Positions 7,537 through 60,609 of a stretch of DNA of 64,000 bases are shown here, in pieces. Below the pieces are notes generated by a model. The model was not told the origin of the DNA, did no database searches, and worked only from the letters and a program-made list of their open reading frames with translations. The DNA is taken from the sequence record KR014248. One strand, 5' to 3'. Positions within the stretch are counted from its first letter, which is position 1, and each line of letters begins with the position of its first letter. The stretch comes from Escherichia phage vB_EcoM_AYO145A. A program made the translations under genes and the position numbers.

Positions 7537-8322
7537 ATGGGTATTGTAAAAATTATCAATGGTAATATCTTTGACGCATTTGATAAAGGTAAGTTTGACA
7601 TCATTGGTCATGGTTGCAACTGTATGAATTTCATGGGTGCAGGTATTGCAGCAACTATTTCTAAGCGTTATCCAAAAGTGTATGATACTGATACAGAAGT
7701 TTACCTGTTTGCAGGTGGCATTCGTCACAAACCCTGTGAAAATTTACTAGGTAATTTCTCTGTAGCACGTTTAAAACAAGGTCGTATAGCTAACCTTTAC
7801 ACCCAACTTCATACTGGTAAAGATGCCCGATACAGTGCTTTAGAGTCATCTTTGAAGCAGCTTAACAGATACTGTGAAGTCAATCAGTTGAAGAAAGTTG
7901 GGTTACCTATGATTGGTGCAGGTATCGGTGGGCTAGACCCTCAAGCCGTCACAGTTATCATCAATCAGGTGATGAAGAGTGTAGATGTTTATCTATATGT
8001 CTATGAAGGAGAGATGTACCACAAGTTACGCTCAGGTTGGAAGAACTACTGTGAACCAGAATACTTTGCAGGTGTAGTTGTGTTCACGGATAATGCAGTT
8101 ACCCTCTTCAGACGAAGAAAAGGTAAGATACATCAAAGTAACCCTCCGGTTGAAAAGATGTCTCTAAGTAACGCTCTAGTTACCCACCTGTCGAAGAGCA
8201 ATCACGGGATTGCAGTAACATTTGGCAGTGATGCAGATACTTACATCTATGCAAGAACTGATGAGGATATCGAGACAGTTTTCTCTTCGCCAGAAGTTAC
8301 CTTCTTAGACGCAAAGAACTAA
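7537..8322 (+). CDS. macro-domain protein (TARG1/OARD1/DarG-like ADP-ribose hydrolase)
   Basis: IIGHGCNCMNFMGAGIAATI and GLPMIGAGIGGLDP resemble the TARG1/DarG-type macro signature (H-C-x-x-C...MGAGIA, P-x-IGCG-x-D) as I recall it. Confidence 0.6.
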   Translation: MGIVKIINGNIFDAFDKGKFDIIGHGCNCMNFMGAGIAATISKRYPKVYDTDTEVYLFAGGIRHKPCENLLGNFSVARLKQGRIANLYTQLHTGKDARYSALESSLKQLNRYCEVNQLKKVGLPMIGAGIGGLDPQAVTVIINQVMKSVDVYLYVYEGEMYHKLRSGWKNYCEPEYFAGVVVFTDNAVTLFRRRKGKIHQSNPPVEKMSLSNALVTHLSKSNHGIAVTFGSDADTYIYARTDEDIETVFSSPEVTFLDAKN

Positions 8323-8351
8323 GAAACTTCGTAGGATATTCACAATAGACT

Positions 8352-8398
8352 AAGCCTTTCTTATCTGGTAAATTTTTCAGGTAAGGAGGGCTTTTTCA
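8352..8398 (+). terminator. imperfect hairpin plus T-run
   Basis: AGCCTTTCTTATCTGG ... CAGGTAAGGAGGGCT followed by TTTTT. Confidence 0.4.
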
Positions 8399-8590
8399 TT
8401 TCAGAATTGTGCAGGTATATTTCTATAGAGAAATCTGTAGAGAAAATTTTGAACTCCAAAGAGAAAATTCATTTTCAAACTGTGCAGGTAATCTCCAAAG
8501 ACCTTTTTCATTTTCAAAACGTGCAGAGAAAAATCAGGTCGGGCAAGAAAAATCATTTTAGAATTGTGCAGGTAGGTGGGTGCAGGTGGG
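8397..8590 (+). repeat. four direct repeats CATTTTCARAAYTGTGCAGGTA
   Basis: copies at about 8397, 8470, 8509, 8554, plus GGTGGGTGCAGGTGGGG; non-coding. Confidence 0.6.
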
Positions 8591-8750
8591 GATGTCGCCA
8601 TTTCTCACAAGGCTACCACATCTGAAAAGAAAAGTCAACAGAAAAATTTGTAGCGGATTGAAAAATAATTCTTGATTGTAGTTCTGTTTTGTGGTAGTCG
8701 CGCGCACCCGTTTCATTACAATCTTTGCAAAAATATTTTTAAAATTTTTC

Positions 8751-8779
8751 TTGACTCTTTGAACGGGGTTATCTAGTAT
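8751..8779 (+). promoter_or_regulatory. sigma70-like promoter (TTGACT-N17-TAGTAT)
   Basis: upstream of the first small-ORF cassette. Confidence 0.45.
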
Positions 8780-8842
8780 TTGCATCAACGGGGAGGGAAT
8801 GACCTTCCCCACTAAATAAAGTCCTAAACTGGAGATTCAAAA

Positions 8843-9223
8843 ATGAAATACCGTGCACCTAAATTCATCAACAAAGACAACTTTCGCAACGCACTGGAGA
8901 AGTCACTTGATGAAAATTTTAAAGGTAATGTTATTGTTGTTCACTCGTTTAATTTTAAGTATGATGTAAACGGGAATAGAATCAACCATTACACGGCAAC
9001 CATGTTAGATGGTACACTTTCAAGTGAAAAAGCCATTTTACATGCACTTGCAGGACGTGGTAAAAACCTGATAAGATGCGATAAGAGACGTTATCAGGGT
9101 GGCGCATATGGTTATGATGATGCTGTTTATCATCTTGAAAATATGGGCTATTCAGTGGAAAAAGCTGGAGTGTCTCAAATAATCGGCAGTGACGGCTATG
9201 TGACAATTTTCAAAATTAACTGA
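8843..9223 (+). CDS. hypothetical small protein (leader-cassette gene 1)
   Basis: 126-aa ORF with type A leader. Confidence 0.6.
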   Translation: MKYRAPKFINKDNFRNALEKSLDENFKGNVIVVHSFNFKYDVNGNRINHYTATMLDGTLSSEKAILHALAGRGKNLIRCDKRRYQGGAYGYDDAVYHLENMGYSVEKAGVSQIIGSDGYVTIFKIN

Positions 9224-9311
9224 TAAAGTACTTTACAAGGGGCTTATAGTTCGATAAAGTAAGCCCCAGATAAAGAGCTTTACCACTAAATCCTAAATTG
9301 GAGATTCAAAA

Positions 9312-9569
9312 ATGGCTATTATCAAAAACGTTGTAATTCCTGCAAAAACTCGTGATGACGCTCGCGTTATGGCTAAAAAGTTATGCGGGAAAGTGGTTGA
9401 CAACGGAAAAACATCTGCTGTAAGATGGGGTGTAAAGGCTGATAAACAACTAACCTTAAAACGCAGTTCAAACAACCTTTTTAAAGGTGTAAAATCACTC
9501 GGTAAAGTGAACGTCTTTACCAAAAAAGGCTATAAAATGCACTTATCATTAACTGGCAATTTAATCTGA
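9312..9569 (+). CDS. hypothetical small protein (cassette gene 2)
   Basis: 85-aa ORF with type B leader. Confidence 0.6.
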   Translation: MAIIKNVVIPAKTRDDARVMAKKLCGKVVDNGKTSAVRWGVKADKQLTLKRSSNNLFKGVKSLGKVNVFTKKGYKMHLSLTGNLI

Positions 9570-9657
9570 TAAAGTACTTTACAAGGGGCTTAAAAGTTGA
9601 TATCTTAAGCCCCAGATAAAGAGCTTTACCACTAAATCCTAAACTGGAGATTCAAAA

Positions 9658-10170
9658 ATGAAAACTGTAGATGCTACCTTTGAAGTTGTAAAAGAAAAAT
9701 TCACCATTATTTATGAAGCTGTCAATTGCTTTGAAGCAAGCCATAGCCTTGATAATTGGGAGTTTACAGATGACCATCAAGGCGGCGTGACGATTAAAAA
9801 TCCTAACTATCAGCGTAATGAATTTAAATATGCAATCCCTTTGCATTACAGCCTTAAACAGCTTTCAAGTGACTATGCAAAACAAGGCCGCGATAACCCA
9901 TCGAAAGAGGCTTACACGAGCTTACAGAAAGAACTAGAAAGAGATTTAGAGGCTTCAGAGTATAACCTTGCCGCGAAAGTTGTGGATGCAAACGGTAGCA
10001 CGGTTTTAGAAAGTTTTTATCTTGGTTATGCTTTCGATTGGTGCTATCGTGACGGCGATGATTTAGAGGATAGACTAAAAGAAGAGGTGAACAACGCAGA
10101 CGCAGAATCTGAAGTTTTAGAACGTTTGGAAGCATTAAAAGATTCAGTGATGAATATCTTTAAGAACTAA
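9658..10170 (+). CDS. hypothetical protein (cassette gene 3)
   Basis: 170-aa acidic ORF with type B leader. Confidence 0.6.
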   Translation: MKTVDATFEVVKEKFTIIYEAVNCFEASHSLDNWEFTDDHQGGVTIKNPNYQRNEFKYAIPLHYSLKQLSSDYAKQGRDNPSKEAYTSLQKELERDLEASEYNLAAKVVDANGSTVLESFYLGYAFDWCYRDGDDLEDRLKEEVNNADAESEVLERLEALKDSVMNIFKN

Positions 10171-10261
10171 ATAGATTTCTTTACACGGGGCTAACAAGCG
10201 GATATGATAGCCCCAGATAAAGAGATTTATCAAATTAACCCTTAAACTAGGAGATTCAAAA

Positions 10262-10558
10262 ATGAAATTATCAAATAAAGTTAGGGAAAACCTTAGCAAA
10301 TTACTCAACAAAATTGATTTTATAGAGACATCAAGGAATAGTCATGATGTTATGGAATGGTTACACGGCAAAATAAAAGGCCGTCGTGTAGTGATTTGCT
10401 TATGGAATAGTTGCAGGGAGTATAAAAAACCTGTATTGCAAGTCAATATCTATGATGATACTTTTAAAAGTCCTGTAAAGTCTAAAAGTGATTTATTAGA
10501 ATCCTATGAGATAACTGTAAATGGCAAAGTATCACGTAAAGAGGAAACACCATGTTAA
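10262..10558 (+). CDS. hypothetical small protein (cassette gene 4)
   Basis: 98-aa ORF with type B-like leader. Confidence 0.55.
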   Translation: MKLSNKVRENLSKLLNKIDFIETSRNSHDVMEWLHGKIKGRRVVICLWNSCREYKKPVLQVNIYDDTFKSPVKSKSDLLESYEITVNGKVSRKEETPC

Positions 10559-10884
10559 TGACTGGTATCACTGCAATCATTGCCATTTTCGCGCTATATA
10601 AGGCATATAAAGCCTATAATCTAGCAAACAAGGCAATCACACAGCAGGTTAGTAATAGCCTTGTAGAGAGCTTTCTAGGACGTTTAAGTGATGAGCAAAT
10701 AAAGCGGCTAGAGATGAGCTTCAGATATAAAGCGAAAACCTATCAGATAAGTGACATCTTCAAAGATAATTTTCAGCTTGTCGATGATTATAACTCTCTG
10801 ATAAATGCTTTAAATATCAGTGACTTAAAAGACTATTACGCTGTAATTGTCCAAGAATTGAACAAACGAAAAAATTTCTCTTGA
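10552..10884 (+). CDS. hypothetical membrane-associated protein
   Basis: 110-aa ORF, start overlaps upstream stop; N-terminal hydrophobic segment. Confidence 0.5.
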   Translation: MLMTGITAIIAIFALYKAYKAYNLANKAITQQVSNSLVESFLGRLSDEQIKRLEMSFRYKAKTYQISDIFKDNFQLVDDYNSLINALNISDLKDYYAVIVQELNKRKNFS

Positions 10885-10974
10885 TTTTGGTTTTTAAAAC
10901 AAGTAAATTACTAATCAACGGGGAGGGAATGACCTTCCCCACTAAGCAAAGTCCTTAAACTAGGAGATTCAAAA

Positions 10975-11247
10975 ATGTATACTACTAACAACGGTCGCAC
11001 CTTAAACGTAACCCTGCGCCACTATGTGAACGGTGTAATGCACTTCGAGGATTTACAAGCTGAACAACACATTCTGAATTGGCAACTTGCAGGACTGCAA
11101 AAAACTGCTACAGGATACGGGAAAAAGATTCCAACCAGTTGGAAAGTATACTACGAAGGCCGTTTGCGCAGAATTTATCAAGATGTATACAGCAACAGCG
11201 CAACAAGTTACATTATAGTAAAAGGCAAAAAACTGCATTTAATGTAA
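10975..11247 (+). CDS. hypothetical small protein (cassette gene 6)
   Basis: 90-aa ORF with type A leader. Confidence 0.6.
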   Translation: MYTTNNGRTLNVTLRHYVNGVMHFEDLQAEQHILNWQLAGLQKTATGYGKKIPTSWKVYYEGRLRRIYQDVYSNSATSYIIVKGKKLHLM

Positions 11248-11333
11248 AGTACTTTACAAGGGGCTTATAGTTCGATAAAGCAAGCCCCAGATAAAGAGCT
11301 TTACCACTAAACCCTAAATTGGAGAACTTAAAA

Positions 11334-11738
11334 ATGGCTATTAATAACCGTGAATTATCAATCTTAAAAGCACGTTTGACCGTCAATCGAATCAATGTTA
11401 TCACATCATCAGCACCGGACGAGACATTGCACAACATTATCGGAAAGATTCAAAGCGTTATTTTAGACGTTGAAAACGTAAAAAGCTCATTGGCTGACGT
11501 TGCAGCAGGTATCACACTAGATGGCGCACAATATGAAATGTGCGACATGTTAGGCAAATCAAAGGTAATGAATAAAGAGCTTGATTTAAAGATGTTCCGA
11601 TTTGCTGTTAAAGTATGGCTATCCGTTGAGTATGACGCTAATTTTGCAATCGCTGATTTCTTTGCCACTTGGTTACAACGTAATTTGACAAATCACGATT
11701 TTCGTGGTATCTGCGATGCAATTTATGCAGAACTTTAA
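11334..11738 (+). CDS. hypothetical protein (cassette gene 7)
   Basis: type B leader then GGAG-N9-ATG at 11334; the ORF-track start 11319 is a TTG inside the RBS. Confidence 0.55.
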   Translation: MAINNRELSILKARLTVNRINVITSSAPDETLHNIIGKIQSVILDVENVKSSLADVAAGITLDGAQYEMCDMLGKSKVMNKELDLKMFRFAVKVWLSVEYDANFAIADFFATWLQRNLTNHDFRGICDAIYAEL

Positions 11739-11838
11739 AAATTTTTGTTGACACTGGTTTTTAGATAGGCTAAATTGCACATCAACGGGGAGGGAATGAC
11801 CTTCCCACTAAATAAAGTCCTAAACTGGAGATTCTAAA

Positions 11839-12042
11839 ATGGCTATTATTAACGGCTTAACCATTGAAACTACACACATCAAAGATATCAAAGTTGGTGA
11901 TATAGTCCTTTCCCACGGCGTAGAAAAAACTGTCACTGCAAAGGATATCAAAGAGGATTCTTTCATGGGTAGGACTCTTTTCGGTGATTCTTATTGCTTA
12001 GGTTACCTTGCAGTGTTAAAAGTTGTCAAAAATAACAAATAA
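11839..12042 (+). CDS. hypothetical small protein (cassette gene 8)
   Basis: 67-aa ORF; type A leader preceded by TTGACA promoter-like box. Confidence 0.55.
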   Translation: MAIINGLTIETTHIKDIKVGDIVLSHGVEKTVTAKDIKEDSFMGRTLFGDSYCLGYLAVLKVVKNNK

Positions 12043-12127
12043 AGTACTTTACAAGGGGCTTATAGTTCGATAAAGTAAGCCCCAGATAAAGAGCTTTACC
12101 ACTAAATCCTAAACTGGAGATTCAAAA

Positions 12128-12691
12128 ATGAAATGCTATCACGGTACTACCATCAAAAACTTTGTAAACCTGCTGAATGGTGGCGACAAGCCGGAAGGAA
12201 TCTGGAACTGCTCCTACATGGACGATTGTTTTTACGTTTACCCAATGAGCAAGATTATCAAAACGGAATGTCTGGAAGATGAGGAAGATTCTTACATTCG
12301 TGAACGCTGCATTCAAAACGCCTTAGAGTCTGGACTTATTACGGCAGCTTTCCAAATGGAAACGCAGGACGTAATTGTCATTGAAATGGATATCCCAGAG
12401 GAAGAACTAGAGGACGATTATTCTTGCGACAACATGAGCGATATCGCCAGCTTTACCGGATACTTTGATAAAGATTGGATTATCGGCATTCACTCCGCGA
12501 AATTTAGTGCGATGTATGCACCTTTCTTTTTACCTGATACAACTAACCGCAATTTAGGCTATGTTGACGATGATTTGTTAAGTCTGGCGAAAATTGTACA
12601 GAATAGCGGTGATAGTTCCGTGTTTTGTGACTTGCTGGATAAAATCACGGCAAACATCACAGAACGCAATTTAAAAGACTTTTTAGGTTAA
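12128..12691 (+). CDS. hypothetical protein (cassette gene 9)
   Basis: 187-aa acidic ORF with type B leader. Confidence 0.6.
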   Translation: MKCYHGTTIKNFVNLLNGGDKPEGIWNCSYMDDCFYVYPMSKIIKTECLEDEEDSYIRERCIQNALESGLITAAFQMETQDVIVIEMDIPEEELEDDYSCDNMSDIASFTGYFDKDWIIGIHSAKFSAMYAPFFLPDTTNRNLGYVDDDLLSLAKIVQNSGDSSVFCDLLDKITANITERNLKDFLG

Positions 12692-12754
12692 TCAGTACAA
12701 AGACACCAACTTCCAACTTAAGGCCCATACAGGGCCATTTAAAGGGCTTAAATC

Positions 12755-12988
12755 ATGCTTACAACCGTTTATCTTATCCTTTCTATTTGTAACGGTCATT
12801 CATGCGATTTTAAAGGGCTTGAGGAGTTTACAGGGAGTAAAGAAAATGCTGTTCAAGTGTGCCAGATAGCAAGGCAAGACTATCCCGCCAGTGATGATAT
12901 ACAATGTTACTTTAAGACAGAAGATGAAGACGGCATCTATTTTGACAGCGTAGATGGTCAGTATGAAATTATCATTGAAAAAGACTAG
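12755..12988 (+). CDS. hypothetical small protein
   Basis: 77-aa ORF; different leader (GGCCCatacaGGGCC hairpin). Confidence 0.5.
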   Translation: MLTTVYLILSICNGHSCDFKGLEEFTGSKENAVQVCQIARQDYPASDDIQCYFKTEDEDGIYFDSVDGQYEIIIEKD

Positions 12989-13078
12989 ACAAGCCTGATA
13001 AAAATCTGTAAATTGTCAATCAACGGGGAGGGAATAACCTTCCCCACTAAATAAAGTCCTAAACTGGAGAATCTAAAA

Positions 13079-13420
13079 ATGGCTTATGTAACCGTAATTA
13101 CCGATAAAGCTGGCGCATCTTGGTCAACTCAGGTCAGTGATAAGATGTCACCCATGCAGTGCCTAAAATACTTTGAACAGTGGAATAAAGGCGAGGACAC
13201 AAGCCCCTTTCAAGTGATGCAGATTATCCATGTAGACAACGAAGGGAATAAAACGACGCTGAATAGTGAGTACTATGCAAGCCGTTTTGAAACGAGAAGT
13301 AAAACAATGAAACTTTTACGTGAATCCGGTTATGTCCATATCGCCGCGTTAATCTGGGATGACCTGCTAAAAAGTCAGCGTATCAGCTATGTAAAACCTG
13401 AAAAAATATTCATCAGTTAA
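13079..13420 (+). CDS. hypothetical protein (cassette gene 11)
   Basis: 113-aa ORF with type A leader. Confidence 0.6.
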   Translation: MAYVTVITDKAGASWSTQVSDKMSPMQCLKYFEQWNKGEDTSPFQVMQIIHVDNEGNKTTLNSEYYASRFETRSKTMKLLRESGYVHIAALIWDDLLKSQRISYVKPEKIFIS

Positions 13421-13639
13421 TCAATAACTTACAAAAAACTTTCAAAAAAGTATTGACAACGCCCCTTGACATTGGTAACTTTGTTCGAGGGGGTTTATCT
13501 AAAAGGGATTAACTTAAAAGATTCTTTATAGATAAGCTTAAAAAATTGCTTGCAATCAGCTAACAAAACAAGTAAATTACTAATCAACGGGAGGGATAAC
13601 CTCCCCACTAAGTAAAGTCCTTAAACTAGGAGATTCAAA

Positions 13640-14170
13640 ATGAACAAGTTCAAAGCTATCAACTTCATTCGTTCAAATGCTGTAATGTCAAAGCCTGTTA
13701 AAGATACCTATGAATTTCGTTGCAATGGTGTACACTTTGCAACCATCACTAAATCAGAAAACGGGGCTTATTACGTCCATCGTCGTAATGTTTCTACTGT
13801 TGTAGTTTCTCATTTTATGCAAGCTGTCGCGGAACTTCTCCCGATGTTTTTAGGTCTTTACTTAGATGAGTGTAAAAACGTTCACAACCACGTTAAAAAC
13901 CTTTTAAACGGTTATAAAATGGCTTATGAACGTTCTATCAAGTCACTAAACAAGTTTTACAACGCACCTAAAAATACTGTATCAATAGCCTATGCTGCAA
14001 ATGGTGAGATGGTAAACTTATCCAATGTGGAAGAAATCAAGCTGCATGATTTACGCCCTAGTGGTTACTCTAAGACTCTCGGTGAAGGTTTAACGTTCAA
14101 TATCAAGAACTTAGAAAAAACTTTAAAAGATATTGAAAAAGATATTGACGAGACAATCAAAAGTCTGTAA
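13640..14170 (+). CDS. hypothetical protein (cassette gene 12)
   Basis: 176-aa ORF; type A-variant leader; upstream TTGACA boxes. Confidence 0.6.
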   Translation: MNKFKAINFIRSNAVMSKPVKDTYEFRCNGVHFATITKSENGAYYVHRRNVSTVVVSHFMQAVAELLPMFLGLYLDECKNVHNHVKNLLNGYKMAYERSIKSLNKFYNAPKNTVSIAYAANGEMVNLSNVEEIKLHDLRPSGYSKTLGEGLTFNIKNLEKTLKDIEKDIDETIKSL

Positions 14171-14236
14171 ATTGTCAATCAACGGGGAGGGAATAACCTT
14201 CCCCACTAAATAAAGTCCTAAACTGGAGTTATCAAG

Positions 14237-14500
14237 ATGGAAAACGTAGAATTAACCACACTTTTACAAATCGCAACCGACAAAGAAAACGTAGCATTAT
14301 TACACCGCATTGAAAGCGATTTGTTCAATGGTGAAATCATCAAAGAGTCTTATGAAGTTGTAGGATTCAAAGACGGTAAAGCGTTTGGATTCTTTGACCT
14401 CGAAAAAGGCAACGCTGTTACAAATTACGATGTTTTATCTTGTGAGATTCTTACAAAATACAACGAAAAAAGGCTTGCAACATACGCCAACATGCAGTAA
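14237..14500 (+). CDS. hypothetical small protein (cassette gene 13)
   Basis: 87-aa ORF with type A leader. Confidence 0.6.
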   Translation: MENVELTTLLQIATDKENVALLHRIESDLFNGEIIKESYEVVGFKDGKAFGFFDLEKGNAVTNYDVLSCEILTKYNEKRLATYANMQ

Positions 14501-14565
14501 ATTACTCATCAACGGGAGGGATAACCTCCCCACTAAGTAAAGTCCTTAAACTAGGAGATTCAAAA

Positions 14566-14814
14566 ATGGCAACTATCCGCGCAATTGTAAATTCTTATGG
14601 CTGCTACACTCTGGACGTTAAATTTGATATCGGTGGAACTGATGAATGTTTTTCATTAGTGAAGACAGTTATCAAACAAGTTATCCCAGATTATAACCCT
14701 ACTGATGACTTCTGGAAAGATGCAGTAAAAGAGGCGTTGAACGATGAATATCATTACCATTATTGGGGTGATTTGATTGTCTCCCTGTACTACAATAAAC
14801 AAGGTTACAACTAA
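14566..14814 (+). CDS. hypothetical small protein (cassette gene 14)
   Basis: 82-aa ORF with type A-variant leader. Confidence 0.6.
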   Translation: MATIRAIVNSYGCYTLDVKFDIGGTDECFSLVKTVIKQVIPDYNPTDDFWKDAVKEALNDEYHYHYWGDLIVSLYYNKQGYN

Positions 14815-14852
14815 TCGACGCAACGGGGCTAAATAGCCCCAGATACCTTTAT

Positions 14853-14879
14853 AGCCCCTTTCTCATAGGGGCTTTTTTA
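14853..14879 (+). terminator. rho-independent terminator closing the small-gene array
   Basis: AGCCCCtttctcatAGGGGCT followed by TTTTTT. Confidence 0.7.
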
Positions 14880-14880
14880 C

Positions 14881-16470
14881 GTCTATCCAATCCTTATACA
14901 ATCCCTTTCCCTTTCCTTTCCAGAATCTTATCAGACCTTAAAAGCAATAACTCTATAGTCCACTCTATAACCTTTTATCAAATCAACTTAAATATAAGCC
15001 CATAACCCGAAAGGGAAGGGCAACCATTTAAACGCTCTATAAAGCTCTATAACAGCCTTATCAACCTAACTTAAGGGATTGCATTAACTCACCCTAAAAA
15101 GCTCTTTATAAAGCTTCCTAGAGCCTTAAAAGAATCTTATAAGGGTGTAAGCTTTATCATCTCGTTAGTTCCTTGTGAACTACTAAAAAGGGCTTGTTAG
15201 TGTCTTAAAAGTATGTTATAGGGGCTATAAAGTTACTTCAAAGTTACGTAAAAGAGGCTATAAAGTTACGTAAATGCTAGCCCCCTTAACATTCTCTTAA
15301 CAAATTCTTAACAATCCCTACATAGTTATGCTTGCTAGAGACTTGTTAGCCCCTTGTTAAATCTCTGTTAAAACCACGTAAAAGCCTTGTAAGAGTCTTT
15401 GACATAGCCTTTAAAGCTCCTGTAAAGCCCTATAAAAAGGTATCTGTACAGTTGGGGTGTAATTACTAGGAAGAGGTTTAAGAGAGCTTACAAAGAGCTA
15501 TAGAGAGCTTTTAAGAGGTATGTTTAGAGAATCACTAAGAAAGAGAGGGAACGATAAGAAAGAGATAGTGACCATGTTAATAGCTTGTTAAAAAGATTAA
15601 ATACTTGTTAGAAACTTGTTAATTATCTTAACAAAATAACTCTTAAAAATTAACTTGTTAGCTCTTGTTAGTCATCTGTTAAGCCTCTGTAAAGACTATG
15701 TATTGACTGTTAAGAACTTGTTACAGCCTTGTTAGTTCTGTTAAGAATCTGTTAAGACCTCTGAAGAGATGTTAAGAGCTTGAGAGAGTTGTTAAGAGAT
15801 TGTTAAGGATATTTTAAAATTCTGCAAAGGGGGTGTTACAGGGATGTTAAGGGCTACCAAGCAGATATACATCTTCTACAGATATTTTTGAGTTCCTTCA
15901 AAGACCCTAAAAAATGACTTGATAGTCCTATTTTATAAAAATTTTAAAATTCTGAATAATTACCTATACAGTCTTTTAAAAATACAGGTAGAAACAGGCT
16001 TATAAGATACCTTGTTAGTACCGTGTTAGACCTTGTGAGATAAGGTCTGTAAAGATATTCCTGTTAAGTTTGTTAAAACAGTCTATATAGAGGCTTAGTA
16101 ATACCTAGTGAACACCTATAGAGAGTGTCATAGCTGACATAGAGATTAAGAGGTGTATAGGAGCTTCTAAGAGGGTGTAGAGGAATGGTTAAGGTGATTG
16201 TATAGGTTGTTAAGAGGGCTTGTTAGAAGAGTGTTTAGAAGGGTTATACAGAGGGGCTATTAAGACCACTAGATAGTTACTAAGATACTATATAGTACTA
16301 TATAACTATATAGAGAGTAAGATTAAGAAGGTTGTTAAGAAGGATAGATATTTTGTTCACATATGATGGTGACCCAGAGGTTGGGACAACCGATGAAATT
16401 TTATAAAAAATATAAATTTCGTAAATTTTACTCAATAAAAAGCCCCCAATTAAGGAGGCTCTTAAGATAT
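14881..16470. repeat. 1.6-kb non-coding region with about 30 short YTTGTTAR / GTTAAGAG repeats and AT-rich tracts
   Basis: no ORF of 60 aa or more on either strand; many CTTGTTAG/CTGTTAAG/GTTAAGAG copies; duplicated CTATAAAGTTACGTAAA; AT-rich blocks near 15900 and 16400. Confidence 0.7.
16436..16466 (-). terminator. rho-independent terminator (minus strand)
   Basis: reverse complement reads AGCCTCCttaattGGGGGCT followed by TTTTTATT, just downstream of the 16472 gene end. Confidence 0.5.
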
Positions 16471-16471
16471 T

Positions 16472-17095
16472 TTAAACCAGTGTTTCCAGAACTGTTTTTA
16501 ATGATGACTTAGTTGTCTGATAAAAATGAGTAAATCCATTGTTGTTATCGAATATCTGCATCATAACAGCATCTCCCTTGATTGGATACACTCGGATATC
16601 ATAGTGAAAACCATTAAAGACACAAGAGCCATTACAGAATGCACTAAAGTCATCCACTGAGATATACTCTTCATGCCCTGTGATTTTTATACAAACACCT
16701 TTACTCAGTCTCTTAGGGTTGATATCTTCCATCACAGACATACTCTGTCCACCAAGAGATACCATAGTGACCACTTTACGGTTCTTCTGTTTAAAGTACA
16801 TCTTAACTTTCTGTAAAGTATCTTCATAGAACGGATAAGACTTCTCTACAAAGATTCCTTCAAGTGGCTCTTTACCATTTTCAACTTCTCTGTTATGCCG
16901 TACTGCAAAGATAATTTGTTCGAACCAGTCAAGATTTTCTTCGGAGAGTGCTTCCCGAATATCACCCCAGTCAAGTACTAAGTAGTTACCTTCAACTTCT
17001 TTTAAGTTATCTTTTTCCATAGCTATCACACCATTATCGTAAAACTTGATATTCTGGTACTGCGAATTTATTACTATTGTTCTTGATGAGGTCAT
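16472..17095 (-). CDS. hypothetical protein
   Basis: 207-aa ORF; overlaps upstream gene by about 60 nt, so the true start may be internal. Confidence 0.5.
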   Translation of the reverse strand: MTSSRTIVINSQYQNIKFYDNGVIAMEKDNLKEVEGNYLVLDWGDIREALSEENLDWFEQIIFAVRHNREVENGKEPLEGIFVEKSYPFYEDTLQKVKMYFKQKNRKVVTMVSLGGQSMSVMEDINPKRLSKGVCIKITGHEEYISVDDFSAFCNGSCVFNGFHYDIRVYPIKGDAVMMQIFDNNNGFTHFYQTTKSSLKTVLETLV

Positions 17096-21124: not shown

Positions 21125-21589
21125 TTACTTTGGATATACACTGTCAAGATAAATGTCAGCTTCCATTCTACGTCTGTTTTTCAGGCCGTTTGAAGTGACC
21201 TTCTTACCTTTGACTGTAACCTTGTTCCACCACTGCATAGCTTCTGCACAACCGACCTTATTACCAGCATTGTGGCGCTTGATAAATGTGGAATCCTGCA
21301 TAGCCGTGATACCAATGTTGTATGTTTCACTTACCAGTGCATCAAACTCATTCTGAGAAGTTGGAACCTTGATAGATTTGTTCACTGCTGCGACAAACTT
21401 TTCAACATCTGCAAGAAGATACTGTTCAGCCTGTTCAGCAGTAATTTTCATGCCCATCTTAACAGGTTTTCCGTCAATACGGATTGTACCATACCCGATT
21501 GTTGGGATTCCGGCAGAGTCTTCGTAAGCCTCTAACTTCAGACCTTCAAAGAACTTAATAGCTTCTAAACCTTTTCTTGAGAGTTGCAT
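21125..21589 (-). CDS. lysozyme (GH24, T4-lysozyme-like)
   Basis: 154 aa; N-terminal signature LEAIKFFEGLKLEAYEDSAGIPTIGYGT. Confidence 0.8.
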   Translation of the reverse strand: MQLSRKGLEAIKFFEGLKLEAYEDSAGIPTIGYGTIRIDGKPVKMGMKITAEQAEQYLLADVEKFVAAVNKSIKVPTSQNEFDALVSETYNIGITAMQDSTFIKRHNAGNKVGCAEAMQWWNKVTVKGKKVTSNGLKNRRRMEADIYLDSVYPK

Positions 21590-22722
21590 TATGCCTCCCC
21601 TGCTGGGTTAACTGTAACTGTTGCCGCATTAGATGTTACAGAGCCACCTGCACCAGTAACTACACAGGTGTAGCTTCCTGCGTCAGCAGTGATTGCACCT
21701 TCTTTGGTGTAAGTTGCAGTAGTTGCGTCTAGGATGTTTTCCTCACCCTTCTTCCACTGATAACCTGTCGCACCAGTAGCCACAACACTTAGTGTCAAGG
21801 TATCACCTTCAGTGATTTCTTGATTGGTTGGCTGCTGAGTGATTACCGGAAGTGCATTCACAGTAACTGTTGCAGGGTTAGAAGTAACAGAACCACCTGC
21901 ACCTGTTACAACGCAAGTGTATGAACCTGCATCTGCTGGCAGTGCACCAGACTTGCTATAGGTAGCGTTTGTAGCTGAAGGGATGTCAGAGCCATCTTTC
22001 TTCCACTGGTAACCTGTTGCACCTGTTGCAGTCACTGATAGACTGATGTTTCCACCTTCATTAATGGTATGGCTAGAAGGTTGCTGTGTAATCACAGGCA
22101 GTGCGTTCACAGTCACTGTTGCTGCATCTGAGGTAACACTTGTTCCACCCTCTCCAGAGACAACACAAGTGTATGAACCAGCGTCAGAAGGTGCTACTGA
22201 CTGTTTTGTGTAAGTTGCAGAATTGGCACTAGGGATATCCTCACCATCCTTCTTCCACTGATATCCAGTGGCGTTAGTTGCTAGAATGCTTAGAGTAAGT
22301 GTGCCACCCTCATTGACTGTTTGACCTGTTGGTTGCTGAGTAATTGCTGGTGGCTTAATAGCATCCTTCAACTTAGCATTCAACATTGAGAACGGCTTAA
22401 CTCTTGCCAACCATTCACAGTAAATTGTGTCAACATCTTTACCATTGATGATTGCATACTGCAAATCCATGAAGAAATCAGCAGTTCTCATCTGTGCACC
22501 AACACTGTAAAGGAGTTCATCACTAAAAGGAACTTTGTAGTCTGGTTTGTAGTCAAACTTCTTAACTTCTGCAATATCAGCTTCAGGCCAATACGAGCTA
22601 TAGGTGAGTGGTAAAATAGCCTCTTGATATGTTCTAAAGTCATATCTCTTACCAGCTTTTACATTTGCAATGAAGCCCTTCACAAACTCTTTGAAGTCTG
22701 GGTAAGTCTTTGCTTTAATCAT
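21589..22722 (-). CDS. protein with three tandem Ig-like domains
   Basis: 377 aa; N-terminal domain paralogous to the next gene; three near-identical repeats of about 83 aa (PVITQQP...GATGYQWKKDG...DAGSYTCVV.GAGGSVTSN.ATVTVNA). Confidence 0.7.
   Translation of the reverse strand: MIKAKTYPDFKEFVKGFIANVKAGKRYDFRTYQEAILPLTYSSYWPEADIAEVKKFDYKPDYKVPFSDELLYSVGAQMRTADFFMDLQYAIINGKDVDTIYCEWLARVKPFSMLNAKLKDAIKPPAITQQPTGQTVNEGGTLTLSILATNATGYQWKKDGEDIPSANSATYTKQSVAPSDAGSYTCVVSGEGGTSVTSDAATVTVNALPVITQQPSSHTINEGGNISLSVTATGATGYQWKKDGSDIPSATNATYSKSGALPADAGSYTCVVTGAGGSVTSNPATVTVNALPVITQQPTNQEITEGDTLTLSVVATGATGYQWKKGEENILDATTATYTKEGAITADAGSYTCVVTGAGGSVTSNAATVTVNPAGEA
21592..22350 (-). repeat. three tandem repeats of about 250 bp encoding Ig-like domains
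   Basis: seen at protein level inside the 21589..22722 CDS. Confidence 0.7.
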
Positions 22723-58892: not shown

Positions 58893-59175
58893 TTATAAGG
58901 CTACTGCCATCCTTCCATACCTTACCTTACCACACCTAACCATACCTAACCAAACTACACCATACAATACCTTGTTAAAAGACCCTTTTAAAGACCTTTT
59001 AAAAAGGTAAGTCTCATTTTAATGTAGTTGAGACTAGCTACCCATACTTTACCTTACCATACCAGACCTCACCCCGCCTTACCGCACCAGACAGCACAAT
59101 GCAGTACAGTACCTTATTAAAAGACCCTGTTTAAAGACATTTTAAAAAGGAGCCTCCGAAGAGGCTACCTAGTCA
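58893..59175. repeat. direct repeat A: C/A-rich CCTTACC-type tracts plus conserved hairpin core
   Basis: about 60 nt (AGACCTTTTAAAAAGGTAAGTCTCATTTTAATGTAGTTGAGACTAGCTACCCATAC) nearly identical to the core of repeat B. Confidence 0.7.
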
Positions 59176-60298: not shown

Positions 60299-60560
60299 GT
60301 GGCTACTACCATCCACCCATACCATACCGAGCCTTACCTTACCAAACCAGACCGCGCCTTACCAAACCAGACCAAACATTACTTTACCCTACCTCATTAA
60401 AAAACCCTCTTAAAGACCTTTTAAAAAGGTAAGTCTCATTTTAATGTAGTTGAGACTAACTACCCATACCGAACCTCACCGCACCATACTACACCTGACA
60501 CCACCTTACACCACCTTACACCACCGCACCATACCTGACCGAGCTACACATCACTTAAAA
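60299..60560. repeat. direct repeat B (partner of repeat A)
   Basis: GTGGCTACTACCATCC start, CCTTACC/CACCTTACA tracts and the same hairpin core. Confidence 0.7.
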
Positions 60561-60609
60561 ACCCTCTTAGAAGACTCTTAAGTGATGCTGGTGAGTACCC
60601 GTTGGTTTA

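Follow-up and report, generated by a model that had tools for sequence, protein, structure and literature searches.

Repeated promoter-hairpin-leader cassettes as probable portable units of a hyperplastic small-gene array in Escherichia phage vB_EcoM_AYO145A

Between positions 8786 and 14820 of a 64,000-nucleotide (nt) stretch of Escherichia phage vB_EcoM_AYO145A (sequence record KR014248; the whole stretch is called the window, and positions count from its first letter), 14 small open reading frames (ORFs) of 67-187 amino acids (aa) follow one another on the plus strand, most of them directly behind a copy of one of two repeated elements, which raises the question of what these elements do and why so many genes carry one. 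We propose, with a probability of about 0.7, that each element is a portable promoter-hairpin-leader cassette serving one gene or a two-gene module within a hyperplastic early array, and that the cassettes recombine in the style of the promoter-early stem-loops (PeSLs) of T4-like phages. The window matches 254 phage records, and because the best matches (Escherichia phages C600M2, CL1 and mio, ~91% identity) all belong to Felixounavirus, its sequence identifies it as the first 64 kb of a Felix O1-like myophage (Felixounavirus, Ounavirinae); a rIIA-like ORF stands at its start and 25 tRNA genes lie inside it.

A repeat search recovered a 108-nt unit in four copies (type B), 70-nt units in five and three copies (types A and A') and a 24-nt core, AGCCCCAGATAAAGAGCTTTACCA, in five. 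The 3' leader CCTAAAYTGGAGAWTCWAAAATG is present six times against 0.01 expected in shuffles, CCTTAAACTAGGAGATTCAAAA four times against 0.00, and two further, more diverged copies lie at 11313 and 14217. Every cassette copy, ~90 bp in length, lies on the plus strand, and the copies are limited to 8.8-14.6 kb of the window. The repeats are located where an earlier note on this DNA had placed them, but they precede 12 of the 14 ORFs, not all 14 as it had claimed: five genes follow a type B and seven a type A copy, two of the latter with a shorter stem (GGGAGG/CCTCCC). The ORF at 10552-10884 overlaps its upstream partner by 7 nt, and the one at 12755-12988 stands behind a different hairpin (12722-12736). 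Type B was located in 286 phage records, with Mooglevirus and 29 Erwinia (Kolesnikvirus) phages among them, and type A in 247. The cassettes are found in three genera of Ounavirinae, with a copy number per genome equal to that within the array. For comparative work we used 14 phages of these three genera, which yielded 57 distinct type A copies from 13 of them (none in the Erwinia phage) and 63 distinct type B copies from all 14.

The promoter-like unit had previously been noted for type B alone; type B does carry one, but so do all seven type A copies of the window, in the order TTGnnn (once TAGACA)-N17-TAAATT or TAGTAT-N6-CAAC-hairpin. The 57 distinct copies keep TTGnnn (or TAGACA)-N17-TAnnnT-N6-CAAC with invariant spacing, and their most informative positions are TTG, then T1, A2 and T6 of the -10 hexamer, then ATCAAC, while an A-tract precedes the -35. 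The hairpin starts 10 nt past the -10 hexamer, and sigma-70 geometry would place the transcription start within CAAC, 2-4 nt ahead of it; since the promoter lies upstream, the hairpin would form the 5' end of the transcript. The first type A cassette (8751-8842) has its -35 TTGACT at 8751, -10 TAGTAT at 8774, CAAC at 8786, hairpin at 8790-8810 and, around its Shine-Dalgarno (SD) sequence, a mini-hairpin at 8823-8834. The next two lie at 10881-10974 (-35 TTGATT 10881, -10 TAAATT 10904, hairpin 10920-10940, SD mini-hairpin 10953-10966 in the CCTTAAACTAGGAG form) and 11748-11838 (-35 TTGACA 11748, -10 11771, hairpin 11787-11806 with one C missing from the 3' arm). They are followed by those at 12986-13078 (-35 TAGACA 12986, which includes the stop codon of ORF 10, -10 13009, hairpin 13025-13045) and 14145-14236 (-35 TTGACG 14145, -10 TAAATT 14168, its TAA being the stop codon of ORF 12, hairpin 14184-14204). 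The two A' cassettes, with the GGGAGG/CCTCCC hairpin, occupy 13550-13639 (-35 TTGCAA 13550, -10 13573, hairpin 13589-13606) and 14475-14565 (-35 TTGCAA 14475, -10 14498, hairpin 14514-14531).

The type A hairpin is known to us in 34 sequence variants, most of which fold at -9 to -14 kcal/mol compared with -2 to -5 for shuffles, while six weaker ones reach -3.7 to -6.0 kcal/mol. Variant stems include GGGGAGGG/CCUUCCCC, GGGAGG/CCUCCC, GGGAGGU/GCCUCCC, GGGGGA/UCCCCC, GGGGAGG-GAAA-CUUCCCC and GGGGC/GCCCC, and the common hairpins are 2-4.6 kcal/mol more stable in the sense than in the antisense strand. An extended pairing of type A in read-through RNA was considered and dropped, as the folds give the core hairpin alone with no conserved outer stem.

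In type B, the promoter is packed inside the hairpin: the lower stem contains the -35 and the apical loop the -10, with the promoter spacer and the discriminator taken up by the two arms of the upper stem. CTTTACA is invariant in the 63 distinct copies, and the apical loop is variable except for T39, A40 and T44, the first, second and sixth letters of a -10 hexamer 17 nt past the -35 (TAAAGT, TAAGAT, TATCTT, TAGTAT, TATGAT and others), a pattern that by sequence fits a -10 element and not an RNA loop. Taken together, the comparative evidence of types A and B supports the candidate promoters well. The predicted type B start is the A of AGAUAAAGAG, just 3' of the upper stem, and the full hairpin would therefore form in read-through RNA only. 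The first of the five copies (9223-9311) has its -35 TTTACA at 9232, -10 TAAAGT at 9255, upper hairpin at 9239-9267, three-tier hairpin at about 9223-9283 and SD mini-hairpin at 9292-9303. The remaining copies are at 9569-9657 (-35 9578, -10 TATCTT 9601, upper hairpin 9585-9613), 11244-11333 (-35 11253, -10 TAAAGC 11276, the weakest of the set, upper hairpin 11260-11288) and 12039-12127 (-35 12048, -10 TAAAGT 12071, upper hairpin 12055-12083), together with a variant at 10171-10261 (-35 10180, -10 TATGAT 10203, upper hairpin GGGGCTA/TAGCCCC 10187-10214) that has a compensatory U-A pair in the lower stem.

Folding of the read-through RNA gives, for every type B copy of the window, an interrupted hairpin of ~20 bp in three tiers: a lower stem UAAAGU/GCUUUA (6-7 bp), a 1x1 mismatch, a middle stem CUUUA/UAAAG (5 bp), a 3x3 internal loop CAA/AGA, and an upper stem GGGGCUUA/UAAGCCCC (8-9 bp, about -14 kcal/mol) closed by a loop of 11-13 nt. 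Across the 63 copies 93.9% of the cells are paired, as opposed to 32-55% with the partners slid by 1-3 columns, and RNAalifold independently predicted the same three tiers. Four pairs have changed on both sides, namely 12-62 (G-C in 52 copies, U-A in 7), 25-49 (G-C in 59, U-A in 4, the four being those of the Erwinia phage) and, with a few more such changes, 7-67 and 8-66; pair 27-47 is C-G in 41 and U-G in 22 copies, and 10-64 is A-U in 56 and G-U in 7. None of 500 shuffles matched the covariation score. A scan of IMG/VR added 50 distinct type B copies, one of which has U-A at pair 27-47 and completes the series C-G/U-G/U-A. The C-to-U change at column 27 moves the upper hairpin from -14.3 to -13.6 kcal/mol in the sense strand and from -13.4 to -9.6 kcal/mol in the antisense strand, a cost of 0.7 versus 3.7 kcal/mol. 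In the Erwinia phage other sequence families show the same design, with the -10 hexamer in the loop of a GC-rich stem (e.g., GGGGTTAC...TAACCCC and GAGGGG-TTAAAAT-CCCCTC), so that conservation of the architecture reaches deeper than that of the sequence. Before the F12 homologue of Erwinia phage SunLIRen (10470-10565), we also observed a canonical terminator hairpin with the -35 CTTTACA in its loop, followed by TATACT and a 5' hairpin GGTTCAGCACTGAACC, which by its sequence reads as a third packing of terminator, promoter and 5' hairpin together.

The type B palindromes might instead act on DNA, as operators (TAAAGTACTTTA over the -35 and GATAAAGAGCTTTAC at +2 to +16) for a phage or host repressor that switches the type B promoters off together, in which case the hairpin would be a by-product. 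GATAAAGAG and CTTTACA are invariant in the 63 copies and across three genera, beyond what pairing needs, most copies have a perfect 12-bp palindrome as their 5' flank, and the folding energy of the whole element has no strand bias. Moreover, the inverted repeats of the ESAS elements in cluster K mycobacteriophages were judged likelier to be DNA sites (PMC3203893). The changes at pair 12-62 argue the other way: going from G-C to U-A, as seven copies have done, restores pairing between the flanks while it breaks both palindromes. This is seen in the variant upstream of gene family F4 and in the Mooglevirus copies before F7, where both flank self-palindromes are broken at the matching position with inter-flank pairing kept, which favours an RNA stem over two DNA operators. 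In addition, G-U and U-G pairs are common, the upper-stem C-to-U change is neutral in the sense strand only, and no repressor candidate was identified, and we consider a set of DNA operators very unlikely.

A second possibility, in line with the original view of PeSLs, is that the hairpins are terminators or insulators which, with each unit made monocistronic by its own promoter, would have no role in stability or processing. According to the PeSL report (PMC2839356), the stem-loop of RB49/phi1, which lies between or over the -35 and -10 as in type B, cut lacZ expression like a strong terminator, and the cassette hairpins are GC-rich and intergenic as well. However, a U-run is absent behind all 12 of them (type A continues with ACUAAAUAAAG, type B with AGAUAAAGAG, both A-rich), and a terminator scan calls only two flanking sites, at 8352-8393 and 14853-14873, which are the sole canonical plus-strand terminators at the array borders; on these grounds intrinsic termination was rejected. 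A type A hairpin, being downstream of its own promoter, would therefore stop its own transcript too, and the conserved lower stems of type B would be superfluous for a terminator. We regard the terminator or insulator view as unlikely overall. Rfam covariance models gave no match at E <= 1 over 8000-16500.

Downstream of their hairpins, both types end in one leader, which consists of an A-rich linker, the SD (GGAG or AGGAG), an 8-nt A/U spacer and ATG. The SD is held in a mini-hairpin of 3-4 bp with the loop UAAAYU. Among 153 Felixounavirus and Mooglevirus copies, 97 have the form UCC-UAAAYU-GGA and 56 the form UCCU-UAAAYU-AGGA, none of the 153 has just one of the two insertions, and most leaders of SunLIRen keep CCU-N5-AGG. 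By eye, the type B leader GAGCUUUACCA(C/A) agrees at 8-9 of 12 positions with the rrn boxA, GCUCUUUAACAA, a possible likeness that was not used further. The leader could be the decisive part, namely a translational operator similar to the SAS motif of mycobacteriophages, by which one RNA-binding factor would adjust or switch off translation across the whole array while promoter and large hairpin are secondary. It is common to both types and to three genera, its SD and anti-SD segments change jointly in 153 of 153 copies, a 26-bp part of it was likened to SAS in phage Mordin (PMC4611695), and SAS itself, GGGATAGGAGCCC, also encloses its SD between complementary ends. Nevertheless, a stem of this size is marginally stable, linkage over 7 nt can explain the joint insertions, no such factor is known, and the promoter and large hairpin are conserved at least as strongly, which makes a control acting mainly on translation rather improbable in our view.

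With its cassettes the array spans 8751-14873, and it is hyperplastic, far more plastic than the remaining genome: at least 80% of it is covered by only 19 of 254 relatives (7%), none at 95% identity, compared with 252 of 258 records (98%) for a structural block of the same length, 124 of them at 95-99% identity, and with 209 of 259 records for the rIIA block as a second control, 90 of them at 95-99% identity. The ORFs of the 14 arrays were clustered into families (F1 and so on), the leader type was recorded for each gene, and break-points were taken as the ends of BLAST segments between the window array and each of the 13 relatives. The comparison revealed cassette-bounded gain and loss: 31 of 48 internal break-points fall in intergenic cassettes, intervals that make up 23% of the region (binomial p 1e-9, the events not being independent), and most of the others are <=20 nt from a cassette. 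At missing genes, the two flanking segments overlap on the single cassette that is left.

Leader types are swapped between phages as well. F1 has a type A leader as the first array gene and a type B leader where the 68-aa gene F25 precedes it, and F11 has type A in the window phage and Felix O1 and type B in wV8, Mordin and Sf13. Gene content differs from phage to phage, with F36 limited to wV8, F34 to LF110P2 and F38, F26, F40, F41 and F44 found mainly in Moogleviruses, while Felix O1 is without F1, F2, F8, F9, F10 and F13; the modules F4-F5 and F9-F10 are never separated in the Felixounavirus and Mooglevirus relatives that possess them. F3 is absent twice, and explicit alignments locate the junctions. 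In wV8, the cassette before F4 is of the F3 type as far as ...GGAGATTCAAAAATGAAA, and in heid, it switches from F3 type to F4 type within AGCCCCAGATAAAGAGCTTTA; these crossover points differ, both lie inside cassettes, and the two deletions are independent. In Mordin, F1 is preceded by a tandem pair of type B cassettes that enclose no ORF (about 1950-2060 in the sequence compared), the footprint expected from cassette-to-cassette recombination. The idea of the earlier note that repeated regulatory cassettes mediate a modular, PeSL-like shuffling of early genes is thus borne out by swapped leader types and by genes present or absent cassette by cassette, and we consider a recombination role of the cassettes well supported by the compared sequences.

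Could the repeats be selfish or neutral duplicated DNA without regulation, e.g., remnants of gene duplication or a small mobile element? Earlier genome papers saw mere direct repeats here. Yet the copies all point the same way, each running up to a start codon, and none lies outside this single array, and they are kept in three genera with the position conservation typical of promoters and with compensatory changes. Gene duplication does not account for them because the flanking gene families are unrelated to one another, and we find an origin without regulatory function hardly credible.

Under the preferred reading of portable promoter-hairpin-leader cassettes, host sigma-70 RNA polymerase would start afresh at 12 points within 6 kb. 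Type A transcripts would begin at about 8786-8789, 10916-10919, 11783-11786, 13021-13024, 13585-13588, 14180-14183 and 14510-14513, and their 5'-terminal hairpin (-10 to -14 kcal/mol) would most likely protect the 5' end of the mRNA. For type B, the predicted 5' ends are approximately 9268-9270, 9614-9616, 10215-10217, 11289-11291 and 12084-12086; RNA from its own promoter would lack the hairpin, and RNA reading through from the upstream gene would fold the three-tier hairpin, which most likely sets the 3' terminus of the upstream message, either through RNase III-type cleavage or through attenuation, and would leave a protective 3' hairpin on it. The standard leader with its SD mini-hairpin would add a third layer to the cassette. 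Since the cassettes form a set of direct repeats that hardly differ, they could recombine with one another by homology, and genes would be deleted, inserted and exchanged in this way with every survivor keeping a working promoter and leader, a mechanism already put forward for PeSLs. A more far-reaching version, which we hold to be doubtful, would have one and the same 60 bp of type B dual-coded as a DNA promoter and an RNase III-type site in read-through RNA, the -35 pairing with the first transcribed bases, so that processed and primary transcripts share a common 5' end and leader, with the SD mini-hairpin as the operator for a phage factor that silences translation of the array at once.

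Several observations weigh against the cassette reading and have to be set beside its support. A sigma-70 consensus scan detects 8 of the 12 cassette promoters, but in DNA this AT-rich its total of 32 sites is no clear enrichment over the 20 +/- 5.5 expected, and the promoter claim rests on conservation of position for that reason. In type B, a strand bias is seen for the upper stem only, in copies with U at column 27, while the whole 70-nt element comes to -22.9 versus -22.7 kcal/mol. The covariation represents few independent events, and the shuffle control overstates its significance because recombination has made the copies related to one another. The invariant -35 hexamer and its partner, which are neutral on pairing, account for half of the lower stem, and the invariance of GATAAAGAG points to an extra constraint. 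The SD mini-hairpin is marginal in energy, and linkage alone could keep its two insertions together since they are 7 nt apart. In RT-PCR data of the Felix O1 genome paper, array ORFs 16, 20, 21 and 22 peak at 5 min after infection, but ORFs 17, 19 and 23 at 25 min. Finally, the transcription starts, processing and stability, and with them the 5' protection by type A, the processing or attenuation by type B and the role of the SD mini-hairpin, are reasoned inferences from predicted folds and promoter geometry.

Among known systems, the closest are the PeSLs of the T4-like phages RB49/phi1, PST and nt-1 (PMC2839356; PMC4122927). Both have a sigma-70-like early promoter with AT-rich DNA upstream, a G-run/C-run stem-loop that lies between the -35 and -10 or covers them, and, at the 3' end, the SD and start codon of the gene that follows. 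Both are ~100 bp long and cluster before ORFans in a hyperplastic region, and in both the repeats mark the limits of the indels or replacements that distinguish close relatives. Terminator activity and mini-circles were shown for PeSLs, which these two reports describe for T4-like phages only. Our cassettes differ in that they belong to an unrelated phage subfamily (Ounavirinae), and no sequence homology is claimed. They also have two fixed architectures, of which the type A hairpin downstream of the start is not mentioned in the portions of the two reports that were consulted, conserved lower stems in type B (an interrupted hairpin of ~20 bp) and a far more uniform leader/SD region. We conclude that PeSLs have their Ounavirinae counterpart in these cassettes, which come in two fixed architectures and share a leader of unusual uniformity. 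The SAS and ESAS elements of cluster K mycobacteriophages share with them a short asymmetric SD-bearing motif just before ATG in front of many non-structural gene families; about half of the SAS copies have an upstream inverted repeat, and their function is given as unknown (PMC3203893). Unlike our leader, CCT(T)AAAYT(A)GGAG plus 8 nt, SAS is a 13-bp consensus located 3-7 bp before the start codon, in phages of another host phylum and with no promoters reported in it, and departures in the ESAS arms gave no support for RNA pairing (PMC3203893), whereas the arm departures here do.

Type B further resembles the RNase III sites of T7 in being an irregular intergenic hairpin of ~20 bp with an internal loop among early genes, a likeness in predicted shape only, with no sequence similarity. 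The early RNase III sites of T7 are hairpins of about two helical turns, their internal loop set between an upper and a lower stem, in a cluster transcribed by the host polymerase. Once cut, the upstream message keeps a hairpin at its 3' end that stabilises it, and T7 has three promoters heading one long transcript, not one per gene. For type A, a parallel is offered by 5'-terminal stem-loops that stabilise mRNA, such as the ompA 5' untranslated region, which were reportedly described by Emory, Bouvet and Belasco in 1992; here, too, a stable hairpin would stand within 2-4 nt of the 5' end, as predicted from promoter geometry. The host-takeover module of Bacillus phage SPO1, said to have been presented by Stewart et al. 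in 1998, is likewise a compact cluster of small early genes of unknown function; it reportedly comprises some two dozen of them, many equipped with a strong early promoter and a strong ribosome-binding site of their own. We know of no repeated hairpin-leader cassette or cassette-bounded shuffling described for it.

The repeats themselves have been recorded before. The Felix O1 genome paper lists direct repeats of 57 bp and 39 bp, uninterpreted and not among its promoters, which are fragments of the type B element and of the type A promoter, respectively, and it states that how transcription passes the many terminators, and its timing, are not known. The GenBank record of wV8 annotates DR_1 to DR_9, with the text of the wV8 paper silent on repeats, promoters and terminators, and the announcement of Mordin mentions a 26-bp repeat before 8 genes as "reminiscent" of SAS (PMC4611695). 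Our literature search, which did not cover the phiEa21-4 genome paper (Lehman 2009), found no paper treating the Ounavirinae cassettes as promoter-hairpin units or recombination modules, and no transcriptome paper on Felix O1-like phages. These phages are classic Salmonella typing phages, and some papers suggest their use in biocontrol or therapy. In the cassettes they have 12 candidate early promoters. The cassettes would also explain the strong variation of a 6-kb block among otherwise near-identical phages and suggest that PeSL-style shuffling is not limited to T4-like phages. Additionally, they could serve phage engineering as natural insertion or replacement points and ready expression units, and they delimit small early proteins worth screening for host-takeover or anti-defence functions, including a possible ADP-ribosyltransferase.

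The array genes follow the left terminator (8352-8393, plus strand), a 17-bp stem followed by a T-run that ends the upstream unit behind a macro-domain gene (7537-8322) and corresponds to t13 of Felix O1. ORF 1 (8843-9223, family F1, phrog_4495 of unknown function) encodes 126 aa with an isoelectric point (pI) of 9.3, ORF 2 (9312-9569, F2) 85 aa with pI 10.6, and ORF 3 (9658-10170, F3) 170 aa with pI 4.6, the last being absent from wV8 and heid and truncated in vB_SflM_004. ORF 4 (98 aa, 10262-10558) and ORF 5 (110 aa, 10552-10884) form a two-gene module (10262-10884) with an overlap of 7 nt and no cassette between them. After ORF 6 (90 aa, 10975-11247, F6), ORF 7 (134 aa from the ATG at 11334, 11334-11738, F7) and ORF 8 (67 aa, 11839-12042, F8) comes a second module (12128-12988) of ORF 9 (187 aa, pI 4.1, 12128-12691) and ORF 10 (77 aa, 12755-12988), with the hairpin GGCCCatacaGGGCC (12722-12736) in between. 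The series is completed by ORF 11 (113 aa, 13079-13420, F11), ORF 12 (176 aa, 13640-14170, F12), whose last codons hold the -35 of the next cassette, ORF 13 (87 aa, 14237-14500, F13), absent from Felix O1, Bas63 and Mushroom, and ORF 14 (82 aa, 14566-14814, F14).

Six of the 14 proteins are acidic (pI 4.1-5.3), in agreement with what had been noted before. A Pfam search of the 14 array proteins gave no domains, PHROGs places all of them in families of unknown function, and by sequence all 14 are ORFans; the 187-aa product of ORF 9 alone has a weak but consistent match to an ADP-ribosyltransferase-like fold. That the array proteins act in host takeover or anti-defence is a guess. Paralogy among the array genes was looked for and rejected, since the weak matches came from the ORF caller starting at an ATG inside the hairpin loop GGGGAGGGAATG.

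Behind the last array gene, a promoter-less hybrid hairpin on the plus strand (14821-14847, CAAC-GGGGCTaaatAGCCCC-AGATA) joins a type A head to the stem and tail of type B. It lies immediately ahead of the terminator that ends the array (14853-14873, plus strand; t23 of Felix O1), and it is probably a remnant or a solo cassette; C600M2 likewise has a type B-like hairpin behind its last array gene. A terminator-like plus-strand hairpin followed by UUUAUCU (13461-13492), given by RNA folding and not detected by the terminator consensus scan, lies within the 219-nt spacer before ORF 12 and may split the array into two units. At the corresponding position Moogleviruses have an ORF of 46 aa behind a leader of its own, and the spacer therefore looks like the scar of a lost gene.

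Around the array, we observed further repeated motifs. The stretch that separates the left terminator from the first promoter of the array contains, at 8396-8575, CATTTTnnAAnTGTGCAGGTA in four copies spaced by 39-84 nt, a motif also present at the equivalent place in Citrobacter phage Mordin (about 1340-1415 in the sequence compared), and the copies may be a protein-binding array. Beyond the array end, ~1.6 kb without an ORF of at least 90 aa (14880-16470) extends to the first minus-strand gene. CTATAAAG/CTTTATAG motifs abound in this stretch, phages adrianh and heid have repeat regions annotated at the equivalent position, and it may serve as an origin, in packaging or in regulation. The thought that the array adjoins a fixed genome end was dropped, as the data fix no genome-end positions. 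Two non-coding stretches between minus-strand genes (58915-59147 and 60327-60574) have in common repeats of 91-159 nt made of ACCNN-like pentamers, followed by TTAAAAGACCCTTTTAAAGACC. Lastly, three tandem repeats of ~250 nt each (21644-22350) lie inside the minus-strand ORF 21589-22722, the protein of which would therefore contain an internal repeat.

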